Source: Candidatus Edwardsbacteria bacterium (GTDB taxonomy: Bacteria > Edwardsbacteria > AC1 > JBFLXN01). Taken from it: a DNA stretch of 12,346 nucleotides. Where the stretch lies: assembly GCA_040755715.1 (NCBI GenBank), contig JBFLXN010000014.1, positions 1 through 12,346 of the forward strand. The letters are read 5' to 3'. How positions within the stretch are numbered: the first letter of the stretch is position 1; each line of letters starts with the position of its first letter. Made by a program: the position numbers and the translations under genes. The notes below the pieces were generated by a model. That model was given only the letters and a program-made list of their open reading frames with translations. It did no database searches and was not told the DNA's origin. Below, piece after piece: positions 1-12,346 of this stretch.

Positions 1-331
1 CGAAATCCTCGGTTTTTACTAAAATTGCACCTCTTTGGATAAGCTTCGATATAATTTCATAATTTTTGCTGCCACCTTTCAGTCCCTCCTCAAGTATCTT
101 CTGGCCCATAGCCCCATCTGCAACCATTCCATCCTGATACACCTTAAAGTTAGCCACCTCTAATTTCTCAAAATATCTGGCTATTGAATCCCAGAAGCCA
201 GAGATAGTTTCTCTATGTTGCTTCCAAAACTTCTCCCCGAAACCTGCAATACCTCTTTTGTCCACCTGCCTAGCAATACTTCCAAGATCGGCACTCATGT
301 GGATGATTGGAACATAGATTAATTTTCGCAT
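1..331 (-). CDS. Hypothetical protein, N-terminal fragment (about 110 aa visible; gene continues beyond the window start)
   Basis: ATG at 331..329 on the minus strand overlaps the TAA stop (333..331) of the upstream 88-aa ORF as TAATG. I translated the frame by hand and it stays open to position 1: MRKLIYVPIIHMSADLGSIARQVDKRGIAGFGEKFWKQHRETISGFWDSIARYFEKLEVANFKVYQDGMVADGAMGQKILEEGLKGGSKNYEIISKLIQRGAILVKTEDF... No family recognised. It is absent from the ORF track because no stop falls within the window. Confidence 0.45.
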   Translation of the reverse strand, partial: MRKLIYVPIIHMSADLGSIARQVDKRGIAGFGEKFWKQHRETISGFWDSIARYFEKLEVANFKVYQDGMVADGAMGQKILEEGLKGGSKNYEIISKLIQRGAILVKTEDF

Positions 332-597
332 TATTTTCCTAATCCTTTAGCTTTTATTAAAAGTTCTGCTGTCTGTTTACGCAGGGTAGATATGGTTCTG
401 CAATTTTTACAATCCTCGTTTTTCTCATCATATTTTTCACAAGACAAAAGCATCTCCACCTCTTTCTTTAAGTGACTCGCCCTTTCGGCTTTATCAGTTA
501 CTGCCTTTGCCTCGTTGATATCGCGGGTCAATTCTTTAATGGTCCATTCCCTTTTTAGAAATATAGGGCACTTTATCTCTGGTTTTGGTTCTGCCAT
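331..597 (-). CDS. Small Cys-containing hypothetical protein (88 aa, Cys at 10, 53, 63, 66)
   Basis: ORF-track ORF. Its ATG (597..595) overlaps the TGA stop (599..597) of the upstream gene as ATGA, which indicates translational coupling. CxxC (CKNC) plus two further Cys suggest a metal site. No family recognised. Confidence 0.45.
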   Translation of the reverse strand: MAEPKPEIKCPIFLKREWTIKELTRDINEAKAVTDKAERASHLKKEVEMLLSCEKYDEKNEDCKNCRTISTLRKQTAELLIKAKGLGK

Positions 598-1598
598 CAG
601 CGTTTAACCTCTGGGATCTGTTTTTCGCTTCCTAACTTCTGCAATCTGACCTCCAATATATTATTATGGTATCTTCTCACAATTCCTTCGCTGTCAACTT
701 TTGCTGGAAGAGAAACCTCTTCATAGTAGTTAGATTCGGGAGTTTTACAAGAGACGGTAAGTCTATCTTCATCTACCCCTAATAATATATCCTCTTCCTG
801 GGCACCTTTTAATTCCATAATGATGTTTAGATGGTCGCCTTCATCAAAGATATCCAATAACAATTCCTCTTTATCTTTTTTTAATTTATCCCCTCCGATA
901 ATCCACCAGCTAAACATAACTTTCTTTCCTGTGGATTCATCAATCTTACATCTTTGGAATACTAAAACCGGAAAACCTATCAGCTCTTGAGCCGTTGGAT
1001 TAATAATATTTCTTACCCTGTGGAGAATATCCATATGATTTGGCGCATTATAGCTGTGAGCCAATTCGTCAATGGTGGCATGTCTATTTTGCCAGACAAA
1101 AAGAAGTATATTTTGGCTCTCAGGATCTAACTCTTTGGCAATCTTATCTATTCCCTCTTGATTTATTTCCAATAGGCTTCTTTCAAATATCTTATTTTTC
1201 CACATCTCTACATCTTTTACCATAATCCAGGCCTTTGAAGCAGTTGCACCGCCTTGATTTCTATAAGAGATACAAAGGGCGTCCTTACTTCTTAATGTAA
1301 AACCCCTCTGTTGAATGCTGATTCCTTTTATATTTTCTAAGGACGTCTGGAATATAATCCTCGCCGGCTGCCAAAGAAAAAGCCTCAGGTTAGTCAGGTA
1401 CAGATGCCCTGGTTTCCAGCCGCTGCGTAGATTATCTTTGTAAAAACCCGGATCGCTTAGTATAACCTCTTCATTCGCTTTTAATTCAGGCTTATTTTTC
1501 ATCTTTTCTGTAGTGTTTATAAGTAAAACCTGGATGTCTTGCACCACCGGGTTTGTTATCTTCATATTCTTTCCGTTTATATTTTGACCTTTTATCAA
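597..1598 (-). CDS. GRAM/PH-like domain + winged-helix-like segment + C-terminal Hsp20/alpha-crystallin domain fusion protein (GvpH-like small heat-shock protein, atypical architecture)
   Basis: The N-terminal region GWKPGHLYLTNLRLFLWQPARIIFQTSLENIKGISIQ matches the GRAM/bacterial-PH-like motif repeated twice in ORF 4599..5672. The middle segment NILLFVWQNRHATIDELAHSYNAPNHMDILHRV is HTH/wH-like. The C-terminal DIFDEGDHLNIIMELKGAQEEDILLGVDEDRLTVS...RRYHNNILEVRL is a clear alpha-crystallin domain. The track start at 1598 is a TTG, preceded by AGGGG 5 nt upstream. An alternative ATG at 1565 (MKITNPVV) exists. Confidence 0.7.
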   Translation of the reverse strand: MIKGQNINGKNMKITNPVVQDIQVLLINTTEKMKNKPELKANEEVILSDPGFYKDNLRSGWKPGHLYLTNLRLFLWQPARIIFQTSLENIKGISIQQRGFTLRSKDALCISYRNQGGATASKAWIMVKDVEMWKNKIFERSLLEINQEGIDKIAKELDPESQNILLFVWQNRHATIDELAHSYNAPNHMDILHRVRNIINPTAQELIGFPVLVFQRCKIDESTGKKVMFSWWIIGGDKLKKDKEELLLDIFDEGDHLNIIMELKGAQEEDILLGVDEDRLTVSCKTPESNYYEEVSLPAKVDSEGIVRRYHNNILEVRLQKLGSEKQIPEVKR

Positions 1599-1767
1599 AT
1601 TCTACCCCTGTAGAATGTATTATCTGGGCATCTTCACCAGTTGAGTATTTAACCGAATATCTTCTTCTCTTTTTTGCCCACTCATCCCAGTCCATAGCTG
1701 TGGAGTGTCTCACCTTTGTGCCGCGGCCAGTAGAATACCCTGAAGTTTTAGGTGTCTTGGATTTCAT
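1492..1767 (-). CDS. Possible small basic repeat-containing protein (91 aa); uncertain
   Basis: ATG at 1767 has AAAGGGA 5 nt upstream. Lys/Arg-rich, with internal repeats (GYSTGRG..HST / KYSTGED..HSTG). It overlaps the 5' end of the next gene by 73-107 nt depending on which start that gene uses. It may instead be untranslated leader. Confidence 0.25.
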   Translation of the reverse strand: MKSKTPKTSGYSTGRGTKVRHSTAMDWDEWAKKRRRYSVKYSTGEDAQIIHSTGVEFDKRSKYKRKEYEDNKPGGARHPGFTYKHYRKDEK

Positions 1768-1782
1768 TTATCCCTTTTTTTC

Positions 1783-2355
1783 CTATTTCCATTTCCAATT
1801 ACAGGTCTTCCAATCATCAGGCACAGAAGGATGGTCTAAAATTCCTGTTTTCCCGCCTGCGTTATCAGTCTCCTTGACTACGTCCTCCTCGTCGACTTTG
1901 GGACTTTGCGGGGCAGGGGACGGAGCTTCCTCACATGGTTCATCTTGAGAGGAATCGAGGGCTTCAGCTGCTTCTTCCTCTTCTACGACCTCTTCGAAGA
2001 CTATCCCGCATTTCGGACAAACTGTTGTGTTTTCTTTTACGGCTGTGCCACAGCTCACACATTCATATCCTTCTATCTCTTCTACTTCTTTTTTGGTCTC
2101 TTCAGTGCCCATACTACCTCCAAGTTCTTTCTCGCCCTCGCCTTCGCCCTTAACCTGTTCTTCTCCCAAGGAAGTAATCCTGTATAAAGCAAACCTACCG
2201 GGCGAAAGCCTTTCTATATACCCTTTCTCCCACAATTTTTTGCATATATCATAGGCATAATTTATTGTAACCCTTAAGTTCCCGGCAATAGTTACGGTAT
2301 TTCCCTGTTTAATTTCCTTAAATTTTTCTAAAATCTTTTTCTCGTTAGGGGTCGT
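1783..2355 (-). CDS. Winged-helix + zinc-ribbon transcriptional regulator with acidic linker and tail; start codon anomalous (ACG at the RBS-defined start site)
   Basis: The ORF track begins at a TTG (2235) that would cut a winged helix in half. Hand translation upstream stays in frame from the stop at 2361..2359 and gives KTTPNEKKILEKFKEIKQGNTVTIAGNLRVTINYAYDICKKLWEKGYIERLSPGRFALYRITSLGEEQV, a complete wH fold. A near-perfect RBS AAGGAGGT sits 6 nt before an ACG codon (2355..2353), and there is no ATG/GTG/TTG in between. Downstream come CVSCGTAVKENTTVCPKCG (a zinc ribbon) and a poly-acidic tail. Confidence 0.5.
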   Translation of the reverse strand, partial: TTPNEKKILEKFKEIKQGNTVTIAGNLRVTINYAYDICKKLWEKGYIERLSPGRFALYRITSLGEEQVKGEGEGEKELGGSMGTEETKKEVEEIEGYECVSCGTAVKENTTVCPKCGIVFEEVVEEEEAAEALDSSQDEPCEEAPSPAPQSPKVDEEDVVKETDNAGGKTGILDHPSVPDDWKTCNWKWK

Positions 2356-2405
2356 CTTTTACCTCCTTATGTTCTTGGTTATTATTCTATCCTTATGCCA
2401 ACATT

Positions 2406-11780: not shown

Positions 11781-12021
11781 CACTTCCGAACTTCTTCAAG
11801 CTTTTTTCCCTTTCAAATGCCACATCTTTAGATCTATAGGCCTCAAAATATATTAACTCCACTGGTAACATCTTTCTAGTTGAATATATCTTTCCTTGCT
11901 TATGCTCCATTAACCTTTTTTTCAAGTTATTCGTACATCCTATATAAATCCAGTCTTTAACTTTACTACTGAGTAAATATATATAATGCCAATTAGGCTT
12001 TTTAGGAAGGGCGGGGTTCAC
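11725..12021 (-). CDS. Small stand-alone GIY-YIG nuclease family protein (YhbQ/UPF0213-like, 98 aa)
   Basis: WHYIYLLSS (GIY), DWIYIGCTNNLKKRLMEHKQGK (YIG plus the conserved Arg), ELIYFEAY (catalytic Glu) and the REKSLKKF terminal helix. It starts at a GTG (12021..12019) that lies in a duplicated copy of the gvpG leader. Confidence 0.8.
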   Translation of the reverse strand: MNPALPKKPNWHYIYLLSSKVKDWIYIGCTNNLKKRLMEHKQGKIYSTRKMLPVELIYFEAYRSKDVAFEREKSLKKFGSGLARLKSRLGIARKGRAG

Positions 12022-12072
12022 CCTGCCCTTCCTTTTCTCGCAATGCCAAGCCTATATTCAATTTGGCTAAAC
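11995..12072. repeat. Direct repeat copy 2 (provides RBS, GTG start and first codons of the GIY-YIG gene), carrying an extra 14-16 bp GC-rich insert that creates a hairpin (12004..12033)
   Basis: See copy 1. The insert aggaagggcggggt is the reverse complement of accccgcccttcct in the repeat. Together they form arms aggaagggc (12004..12012) and gcccttcct (12025..12033). Confidence 0.7.
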
Positions 12073-12130
12073 TGTTTTTGCATTTCTTTAAAATCTTTGC
12101 CCTGCCCTTAAGCTTAAAATGTGGGATTTA

Positions 12131-12156
12131 CCCAGCCCTTGCGCGCAAGGGCTGGG
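12131..12156. repeat. Perfect 26-bp GC-rich palindrome CCCAGCCCTTGCGCGCAAGGGCTGGG (REP/MITE-like element), intergenic copy
   Basis: It is an exact reverse complement of itself. A second copy with one mismatch lies at 4819..4844 inside a coding sequence. It is followed by ttaggaagggcggggttca (12158..12176), which also occurs at 12002..12020. Confidence 0.75.
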
Positions 12157-12157
12157 T

Positions 12158-12346
12158 TTAGGAAGGGCGGGGTTCATAACTTTCTCCTTCAAGTACAATT
12201 ACTAATTCTACAAAGTTACATGGAGGTACAGGTCCAACGTATTTGAACTTTATCCTTCCATCATAAATTGTGCTTAGTCTATCTACTAATCTATCAAATT
12301 CTTCCACCCGGGGCTTTTCTACCAAGAAAGCTAAGTTTGTTATCAT
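12158..12346 (-). CDS. GvpF/GvpL-family protein, C-terminal fragment (gene begins beyond the right window edge)
   Basis: EEFDRLVDRLSTIYDGRIKFKYVGPVPPCNF aligns with the GvpF C-terminus ...KRLGEVLEKIKKENGLIVRFTGPWPPYSF of ORF 5758..6549. The last 6 codons and the stop (ESYEPRPS*) are encoded by the GC-rich repeat unit ttaggaagggcggggttca. The ATG at 12346 is probably an internal Met. Confidence 0.55.
   Translation of the reverse strand: MITNLAFLVEKPRVEEFDRLVDRLSTIYDGRIKFKYVGPVPPCNFVELVIVLEGESYEPRPS

Follow-up and report, generated by a model that had tools for sequence, protein, structure and literature searches.

Keeping the very hydrophobic shell protein of gas vesicles soluble and inserting it in the growing vesicle is an open question, and poor assembly and proteotoxic stress limit gas vesicles as acoustic reporters. 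A stretch of 12,346 nucleotides from Candidatus Edwardsbacteria (GenBank assembly GCA_040755715.1, contig JBFLXN010000014.1, positions 1 to 12,346; hereafter the window) bears on this question. It carries gas-vesicle (gvp) genes interleaved with genes for an Hsp70, small heat-shock proteins, a DnaJ-type zinc-finger protein, and an ATPase of the ArsA/Get3 family. Do these chaperones take the place of the AAA+ protein GvpN, as an initial annotation of the sequence had proposed, or do they work in addition to it? We favor the second answer, with a probability of about 0.6: the window would belong to a classical gvp cluster equipped with a private folding module, of a type common in uncultured anaerobes, in which the chaperones supplement a GvpN that is still there. 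The classical accessory parts are present in the window, where GvpF/L, GvpG, GvpK, and GvpO pass their Pfam cutoffs and are joined by GvpJ/M-type nucleators. The folding module comprises Hsp70, small heat-shock proteins, DnaJ-type zinc-finger proteins, and a two-domain Get3-like ATPase, accompanied in relatives by a CDC48-like unfoldase.

The window ends before the cluster does. Its Hsp70 and a 357-residue fusion protein encoded next to it are 100% identical to proteins of a Candidatus Edwardsbacteria metagenome-assembled genome (MAG) that lie on a contig of 27,293 bp. The corresponding accessions form one contiguous series, from the 88-residue protein (MEW6684981), Hsp70 (MEW6684986), the 357-residue fusion (MEW6684987), GvpK (MEW6684989), and a 116-residue protein (MEW6684991) to ArsA (MEW6684994), GvpO (MEW6684995), and a zinc ribbon (MEW6684996). 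The series continues with MEW6685002, a fusion of GvpF/L with a J-domain (P0242), and MEW6685010 (P0363), a Candidatus Edwardsbacteria protein from the same 27,293-bp contig. P0363 is GvpN, scoring 355 bits on TIGR02640 (equivalog cutoff 266.8), and clusters at 90% identity with the second GvpN of locus L089 (related loci are cited by L numbers; 80 fetched loci were annotated with the window proteins as queries). Reading the contig layout from the accession serials and from the contig size given in the protein records, we place GvpN and the J-domain fusion upstream of the window on the same contig. The absence of GvpN and GvpC noted in the initial annotation is thus literally correct for the window; as a statement about the cluster it fails, because the contiguous series and the GvpN score put a gvpN gene on the contig. 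A look at the flanks, which that annotation had recommended, turns up P0363, and the proposal of an alternative pathway built on a missing GvpN is refuted: the gap was an artefact of where the window ends, and gvpN is retained.

A Nitrospirota-labelled MAG contig, JBFLWW010000004.1 (L006, L008, and L089), whose DNA is 90–98% identical over most of the window, served as a proxy for the flanks. Upstream of the genes equivalent to the window, L089 encodes, in this order, a DnaJ zinc-finger protein, GvpN (305 residues), two proteins of unknown function flanking a further zinc-finger protein, a second GvpN (293 residues), a TPR protein, three small winged-helix-like proteins, an Hsp20, a CDC48-family double AAA+ ATPase (714 residues), a GvpF/L-J fusion (340 residues), and two more GvpF/L proteins; from GvpG onwards the window's genes follow. 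On the NCBIfam GvpN equivalog model (cutoff 266.8), the two AAA_5 proteins of L089 score 327 and 354 bits, and the CDC48-like protein reaches 961 bits on its own model (cutoff 803). Two gvpN copies are present in each of the three relatives examined upstream (L089, L091, and L092), and GvpN-like ORFs occur in 16 further loci. A cluster-membership look-up for the CDC48-like gene gave no confirmation on the source contig, so its placement there is inferred from synteny. Taken together, the window is probably the downstream half of a single gvp cluster of more than 30 kb.

The relation between these two MAGs is itself uneven. The Candidatus Edwardsbacteria DNA (window 620–9458, reverse) is 89.6% identical to the Nitrospirota sequence (L006, L089) over 4.3 kb and 97.6–98% identical over the next 4.2 kb, with complete divergence downstream of Hsp70. 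Such phylum-discordant near-identity suggests that the cluster was recombined or transferred, or that contigs were misbinned.

The major shell gene, too, is missing from the window. Two proteins of the Gas_vesicle family are encoded in it, a 116-residue protein (7469–7819; PF00741, 61 bits) and the N-terminus of the 357-residue fusion (4599–5672; PF00741, 62 bits), and neither passes the GvpA model (57 and 41 bits, respectively, against a cutoff of 100). Their best NCBIfam matches are GvpJ (98 bits) for the former and GvpM (97 bits) for the latter; we call them GvpJ-like and GvpM-like on the basis of these best matches, which fall below the haloarchaeal cutoffs of the models. The two genes had been annotated as GvpA/J paralogs, of which the family assignment stands and the GvpA part does not. 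Canonical GvpAs, almost cyanobacterial in sequence, adjoin gvpN in some related loci. In L091 (Thermodesulfovibrionales), whose DNA is 81–88% identical to the window, the cluster opens with a response regulator, a GvpA of 75 residues, a charged protein of 215 residues, a GvpA of 68 residues, two gvpN genes, and the J-domain fusion; both GvpAs score 127–128 bits on the GvpA model. Canonical GvpA is therefore found upstream in the closest relative with enough sequence. The 116-residue protein had also been considered as the major shell protein, a role ruled out by the NCBIfam scores together with the canonical GvpAs upstream in relatives.

A GvpC family match was absent from the Pfam tables of the window, L002, L004, L006, L089, L091, and L092. 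The 215-residue protein of L091 (L091:961–1608) is rich in Glu, Lys, and Arg and sits between two canonical gvpA genes, the textbook position of gvpC. It contains six [KED][DE]F motifs spaced at 25–26 residues; self-BLAST detected no repeats in it, and the periodicity lies in the motif spacing only. We regard it as a candidate GvpC analogue, at present only a lead, and in view of it we make no claim that a GvpC-like protein is missing.

Among the components of the putative folding module, the Hsp70 is the best defined. Its gene (2836–4602) encodes a complete protein of 588 residues (PF00012, 714 bits) that scores 792 bits on the DnaK model NF001413 (cutoff 648), remains below the cutoffs of the HscA models, and aligns end to end with the Geobacillus DnaK of known structure (PDB: 2v7y), with 62% identity. 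It lacks the N-terminal insert of about 24 residues that characterizes E. coli-type DnaK, and its start overlaps the stop of the gene for the 357-residue fusion by 4 nt. In a neighbour-joining tree, Hsp70s encoded directly after this fusion gene cluster together to the exclusion of Geobacillus DnaK; the tree has no support values and two outgroups, and its evidence is weak. Four Anaerolineales loci (L065, L070, L079, and L087) carry their Hsp70 (609–627 residues) upstream, beside Hsp20 and the J-domain fusion, and not after the GvpM-like fusion gene. Their separate tree group and different position suggest a second, independent recruitment.

The candidate J-domain partner of the Hsp70 comes in fused form. 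All 31 J-domains detected in the loci are fused to GvpF/L, with the HPD motif kept. On the source contig, the upstream fusion P0242 matches both PF06386 (207 bits) and PF00226 (43.9 bits, cutoff 27.8) and has its HPD at residue 289. As DNA, P0242 turned up on a 1.2-kb Logan contig only. A search for GvpF/L-J proteins returned 630 matches, and 119 of the 120 among the matches listed carry both Pfam domains. The window's own DnaJ-type protein (130 residues, 7833–8225; PF00684, 43 bits) contains six CxxCxGxG repeats and has no J-domain match in Pfam, which makes it a zinc-finger-only protein and not a type I DnaJ; the initial annotation had called it a J-domain-less, cysteine-rich DnaJ protein. 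Since a J-domain is fused to the upstream GvpF/L, the puzzle of a DnaJ without a J-domain is resolved. Several zinc-finger paralogues occur per cluster, with lengths of 107, 130, 164, and 252 residues in L006/L089.

Two small heat-shock proteins complete the set of potential holdases in the window. An Hsp20 of 195 residues with a Gly/Lys-rich N-terminal extension (6833–7420; PF00011, 24.2 bits, cutoff 20.8) occupies a conserved slot between the GvpJ-like gene and GvpK. A larger protein of 322 residues (597–1565), here called PH-Hsp20, combines a PH/GRAM-like N-terminal domain and a middle domain with a C-terminal alpha-crystallin domain. Alone, it scores 19.4 bits against the Pfam cutoff of 20.8, and 9 of 20 family members match PF00011; the family profile matches the alpha-crystallin domain of the small heat-shock protein 4rzk with E = 5e-19. 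Judged by this profile match, the predicted alpha-crystallin domain is genuine, and the second Hsp20 call of the initial annotation holds in spite of the subthreshold score.

The ATPase gene (8931–10895) encodes a protein of 654 residues with two ArsA-type domains (PF02374, 465 bits). It scores 463 bits on the TIGR00345 model GET3_arsA_TRC40 (cutoff 135) and falls far below the equivalog model of arsenical ArsA, TIGR04291 (223 against 650 bits). Each half of the protein has one P-loop and one CxxC motif, a pattern shared by all 34 gvp-linked ArsA homologues examined, and no cysteine lies between residues 46 and 259. Its best PDB match is 5zme, ‘ATPase ARSA1’, followed by Get3 proteins, and no arsB, acr3, or arsD gene was found in the window or the related loci. 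On the strength of the model pass, the CxxC pattern, and the PDB matches, it appears to be of the Get3 type, not a subunit of an arsenite pump. The likeness to Get3/TRC40, including the fused ARSA1, thus extends from the closest solved sequence match to the CxxC in each half; in Get3, a Zn-binding CxxC lies at the dimer interface. The difference is that the gvp cluster shows no membrane receptor and no tail-anchored client. As the gas vesicle has no lipid membrane, any Get3-like ‘delivery’ would go to the protein shell.

Downstream of the ATPase gene lies a second GvpG-domain gene (191 residues, 8326–8901; PF05120, 38 bits), and this order is kept in L002, L004, L006, L009, L023, L080, and L084. 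The N-terminal extension of this second GvpG protein carries tandem IPLVSK-like repeats at residues ~30–60 (AIPLVSKEIPLVSKPIPLVSAKP). In L002 (12404–16115) and L006 (17292–20967), a second ArsA-family protein of 760–768 residues with an N-terminal extension is encoded downstream of Hsp70. In both loci, genes for a B12-binding radical SAM enzyme and for TPR proteins come after this longer ArsA; the window lacks the module.

The 357-residue protein serves as the marker of this cluster type. It consists of the GvpM-like N-terminus, two PH/GRAM-like domains, and a C-terminal zinc ribbon. In the AlphaFold2 (AF2) model, residues 87–176 and 204–316 form two domains, each of a seven-stranded beta-sandwich and a C-terminal helix, with a pLDDT of mostly 70–90; the GvpM-like N-terminus has a pLDDT below 50 and is uninformative on the shell-protein fold. 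The best Foldseek matches are tandem-PH proteins (E = 2e-8, probability 1.0), with low global TM-scores, as the two domains have no fixed orientation relative to each other. By this predicted fold, the protein appears to carry two PH/GRAM-like domains. The same type of C-terminal zinc ribbon ends both the GvpM-like and the GvpJ-like protein of the window (CPQCG...CPWCGW in the latter), and the GvpJ-like core with a zinc ribbon recurs in 57 of the 80 loci. Stand-alone proteins made of one or two copies of this ribbon (for example ‘YWMRCPSCGKKVVKKELIKKGCYACGW’) are encoded directly after the GvpJ-like gene in 25 loci (L013, L023, L030, L053, L068, and others); the window has none.

The marker fusion has 1036 relatives in the protein collection and is encoded in 288 GTDB species representatives; an alignment of 20 relatives has a mean column identity of 64%. 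Its bacterial carriers belong to Nitrospirota, Omnitrophota, Actinomycetota, Atribacterota, Bacteroidota, and Chloroflexota, and also to Desulfobacterota, Planctomycetota, Verrucomicrobiota, Ignavibacteria, Acidobacteriota, and Bacillota, with the cultured isolates Desulfosporosinus fructosivorans and Anaerobacterium chartisolvens among them. The fusion and its neighbouring genes are found in archaeal MAGs as well (L068 and L078; Methanophagales, Methanomicrobia), which implies transfer of the cluster type between domains.

We assessed how constant the cluster is in the 40 non-redundant loci that are 15 kb or longer. GvpK is present in all 40 and the PH-Hsp20 protein in 37, followed by the CDC48-like ATPase (26/40), the two-domain ArsA (22/40), DnaJ zinc-finger proteins (21/40), Hsp70 (19/40), and a J-domain (18/40). 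Hsp70 and the J-domain fusion occur together in 13 of these loci, and the fusion occurs without Hsp70 in five. Hsp70 keeps its slot downstream of the GvpM-PH fusion and upstream of PH-Hsp20, with start and stop codons that overlap, in MAGs labelled as Nitrospirota, Omnitrophota, Actinomycetota, Desulfobacterota, Chloroflexota, Verrucomicrobiota, and Planctomycetota. Hsp70, the zinc-finger protein, the Hsp20s, and ArsA keep their positions in MAGs of many phyla. The synteny of DnaK and ArsA with gvp genes, which the initial annotation had put forward for checking, is therefore borne out, and the chaperone genes are not chance neighbours. Of the two halves of the refutation that this annotation had named, a gvpN beyond the window edge is thus observed, and a lack of DnaK/ArsA synteny is not.

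J-domain proteins confer client specificity on Hsp70. In the gas-vesicle systems studied so far, the shell protein has GvpF as its primary partner, a transient and chaperone-like one, and GvpL provides the scaffold for the J, S/M, and K proteins (PMC11445434). Given that a J-domain sets specificity and that GvpF binds GvpA, the GvpF/L-J fusion is best read as an Hsp70 loading adaptor. From the observed gene association, domain content, and conserved order, we infer a scheme of four steps. The GvpF/L-J fusion would bind clients of the GvpA family and load them through its HPD motif onto the cluster Hsp70, while Hsp20 and the zinc-finger proteins would hold the aggregation-prone hydrophobic shell proteins. 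The Get3-like ATPase would then cover a hydrophobic helix, either from GvpG or from a GvpA-family protein, until it is handed over, its client possibly being the helix of the GvpG-domain protein encoded after ArsA in several lineages. Finally, GvpN would act as in other clusters. A model of this kind, with holding by Hsp70 and Hsp20 and Get3-like delivery, had been sketched in the initial annotation and is plausible. A stronger version would describe the whole set as a self-contained, client-dedicated proteostasis machine for one organelle, consisting of the GvpF/L-J adaptor, Hsp70, small heat-shock proteins, holdases, the Get3-like ATPase, and CDC48, with zinc-ribbon tails and PH domains as docking handles. 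We put this version forward tentatively, as somewhat short of an even chance.

Several observations weigh against a classical cluster with a private folding module. The Hsp70 is an ordinary DnaK by sequence, as close to the Geobacillus protein (62% identity) as to many gvp-linked Hsp70s, and identities inside the tree group are no higher than to Geobacillus. Six of the Hsp70-bearing long loci have no J-domain fusion within reach, and the gene tables of six related loci list no GrpE; the in-cluster Hsp70 could rely on a housekeeping copy from another part of the genome. The Bacillota versions keep CDC48 and lack Hsp70, ArsA, and the J-domain fusion. With about half of the related clusters lacking Hsp70 or ArsA and the Bacillota lacking both, the module is dispensable in clusters of this type. 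Canonical gvpA, the second gvpN, and CDC48 are placed by relatives and not confirmed on the source contig. Moreover, both the tie between the chaperones and gas vesicles and the formation of vesicles in these organisms are predictions from genes.

The most serious alternative is that the chaperones act mainly in turnover or quality control, with Hsp20, Hsp70/J, and the CDC48-like ATPase forming a private disaggregation triad that would pull GvpA-family proteins out of vesicles that have collapsed or misassembled and recycle them, or would clear aggregates at induction. The combination mirrors the sHsp-Hsp70-Hsp100 system, a known disaggregation network, and CDC48 is the most widely kept of the accessory genes (26/40 loci), persisting even in clusters without Hsp70. 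Gas-vesicle expression is, in addition, proteotoxic in E. coli (PMC12848028). What makes us consider recycling unlikely as the main role is that the J-domain is fused to GvpF/L, which in studied systems serves assembly and binds nascent GvpA; the fusion points to a loading step. Still, sequence alone does not separate assembly from recycling. A more distant departure from the folding-module reading would be a cluster that no longer serves buoyancy, being either decayed or devoted to another GvpA-based structure. Many carriers are sediment or subsurface MAGs, where flotation is not obviously useful, and the zinc-ribbon and PH additions to the GvpJ- and GvpM-like proteins are unusual. We consider this improbable, as the ORFs are intact and highly conserved, to judge by the 64% mean column identity of the marker across phyla, and relatives hold the full classical set, including a canonical GvpA nearly identical to the cyanobacterial type.

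It is less probable again that Hsp70, Hsp20, and ArsA are general stress genes that ended up beside gvp genes by chance and have no dedicated role. The canonical look of the Hsp70, which passes the NCBIfam DnaK model, would fit such an origin, as would the many related clusters that do without it. Against this stand the Hsp70 slot and its overlapping codons, maintained in seven phyla, the lack of a canonical dnaJ or grpE beside Hsp70, the exclusive occurrence of J-domains as GvpF/L fusions, and the missing E. coli-type insert in an Hsp70 carried by Gram-negative lineages; together they leave chance association a very small probability. Smaller still is the share we allow to assembly independent of GvpN and GvpC, with Hsp70/Hsp20 and the Get3-like ATPase taking over the role of GvpN. 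It drew on the lack of either ORF within 12.3 kb, and it is countered by the GvpN on the same contig, by the paired gvpN genes of three relatives and the GvpN-like ORFs of the 16 further loci, and by the periodic charged protein at the gvpC position in L091.

How does a cluster with such a module compare with systems already described? The textbook gvp clusters, namely gvpACNJKGFVW of Anabaena, gvpB-U of Bacillus megaterium, and the p-vac cluster of Halobacterium, have in common with it a core of GvpA, GvpN, GvpF/L, GvpG, GvpJ/M(S), GvpK, and GvpO. The present cluster differs in being about three times longer and in its private chaperone set, its duplicated gvpN, its four GvpF/L paralogues, one of them fused to a J-domain, the zinc ribbon shared by its GvpJ-like and GvpM-like proteins, and the two PH domains on the latter. 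In Fe-S cluster assembly, the specialised J-protein HscB binds one client and hands it to HscA, the Hsp70 of the same operon. A putative client-binding J-protein and an operon-encoded Hsp70 are found here as well; the client-binding part would here be a GvpF/L domain, and the Hsp70 scores as DnaK and not as HscA. Plant BSD2 may be a comparable case for the zinc-finger proteins, being a small J-domain-less CxxCxGxG protein that acts as assembly chaperone for one abundant, aggregation-prone complex. It differs in having four repeats where the window protein has six and several paralogues occur per cluster.

Parts of the association have been recognised before. Castillo and Saier (2010, PMC2963123) reported a two-domain ArsA homologue of about 640 residues, without ars genes nearby, in operons from several phyla that contain gvpF/L,G,J,K,M,N,O and hsp20, and suggested that ArsA, together with GvpN, powers a step in vesicle formation. 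The link of ArsA and Hsp20 with gvp operons has thus been known since 2010. That study does not report an in-cluster Hsp70, a GvpF/L-J fusion, DnaJ zinc-finger proteins, or a CDC48-like ATPase in these operons, and likewise does not report PH fusions, zinc-ribbon tails, or the Get3-type CxxC in each half. In the full-text literature, excluding subscription-only articles, we found no paper that combines gas vesicles with an in-cluster Hsp70, J-domain, PH domain, CDC48, Get3, or zinc ribbons. The cluster is widespread in public data, where NCBI has annotated it gene by gene, and apparently has gone undescribed as a system.

The specific point of interest is the GvpF/L-J adaptor with its private Hsp70. 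Its occurrence in hundreds of proteins beside a dedicated Hsp70 makes the hypothesis that GvpF is a chaperone experimentally simple. If the stronger version, the client-dedicated proteostasis machine, is true, the cluster would offer direct natural evidence for the proposed chaperone role of GvpF and a ready parts list for better gas-vesicle expression in foreign hosts. The comparison also shows the best-studied gvp clusters to be a minimal subset of the natural ones, and the value of the locus lies in this comparative picture and not in an absence of GvpN.

The remaining genes of the window fit the same layout. Every credible gene is on the minus strand, with a negative GC skew across the whole window. 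Seven gene junctions overlap by 1–23 nt and most of the remaining gaps are below 50 nt, so the operon-like, translationally coupled arrangement described in the initial annotation is real; its gene list is likewise confirmed by Pfam for GvpF/L, both GvpG proteins, GvpO, GvpK, Hsp20, Hsp70, ArsA, and GIY-YIG. Consensus scans of the window gave numbers of promoters (27; 26 expected) and terminators (10; 12 expected) in keeping with chance, and an Rfam scan at gathering thresholds returned no match. At the upstream edge, the window opens with the C-terminal 62 residues of a GvpF/L protein whose gene exits it (12158–12346; PF06386, 43 bits); the fragment has 99.4% DNA identity to the 292-residue GvpF of L089. 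It is followed by GvpG (94 residues, 11444–11728; PF05120, 84 bits), a double zinc-ribbon protein (68 residues, 11233–11439; PF12773, 36.8 bits), and GvpO (89 residues, 10938–11207; PF05800, 67 bits). The slot of the double zinc ribbon between GvpG and GvpO is kept in L003, L006, L089, and L092. Between the 195-residue Hsp20 and the marker fusion lie GvpK (105 residues, 6519–6836; PF05121, 68 bits) and a complete GvpF/L (254 residues, 5758–6522; PF06386, 221 bits). The length of the latter assumes the start of the L001 gene call, with a 4-nt overlap of the GvpK stop; from the earliest possible start (6549) the protein would have 263 residues.

Downstream of Hsp70, and overlapping its stop by 23 nt, is a gene for a weakly MraZ/AbrB-like protein of 150 residues (2406–2858; PF02381, 22.4 bits, cutoff 23), a possible regulator with homologues directly after Hsp70 in L002, L006, L009, and L018. 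Next comes a zinc-ribbon protein with an acidic tail (1783–2235; 128–150 residues, depending on the choice of start), whose Pfam zinc-ribbon matches lie below the cutoffs and which has a homologue in L006. The PH-Hsp20 gene overlaps by 1 nt the gene of a conserved four-cysteine protein of 88 residues (331–597), for which a Pfam search found no family. Homologues of the latter occur in L004, L033, L052, L053, L059, L065, and L079, and its 90% cluster has 29 members (n=29). Its cysteine pattern reads CP.F ... C.EY ... C..C, and it regularly trails the PH-Hsp20 gene with the same 1-nt overlap. The downstream edge (1–331) holds the N-terminal 110 residues of a conserved protein of about 230 residues, whose gene exits the window; 22 full-length homologues were found in the fetched loci, and neither Pfam nor NCBIfam assigned a family. 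Members of this family (for example L030:18898–19581) carry the motif ‘YVPIIH..ADLGS’ near the N-terminus and ‘KIYQDG’ later on, and often adjoin the CDC48-like ATPase or sit between GvpF/L genes.

One gene of the window is foreign to the system. The GIY-YIG ORF (98 residues, 11725–12021; PF01541, 53 bits) was correctly called in the initial annotation; its inclusion among the components of the cluster is not upheld, as it lies in an insertion that three relatives lack. This 445-nt element (11728–12172) consists of two tandem units bounded by the same perfect 14-nt inverted terminal repeats (ACCCCGCCCTTCCT / AGGAAGGGCGGGGT). One unit, of 291 nt, carries the GIY-YIG ORF; the other, of ~154 nt, has no ORF and includes a perfect 28-nt palindrome. 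The related contigs L006, L089, and L090 lack the insertion, and the junction shows a 4-nt overlap; the element sits exactly at the TGAA that, in relatives, is shared by the gvpF stop and the gvpG start. It alters the C-terminal residues of GvpF, and its end supplies the GTG start of gvpG. The element is a mobile insertion and not part of the gvp system. The Logan contig L001, from the same sample and at 11.6 kb shorter than the window, starts exactly at the edge of the insertion, as expected for a multi-copy repeat. In other loci, 23S_rRNA_IVP genes (PF05635) are inserted between gvp genes (L002:451–864 and L004:8210–8593), and gvp clusters of this type seem to collect small selfish genes at their intergenic junctions.

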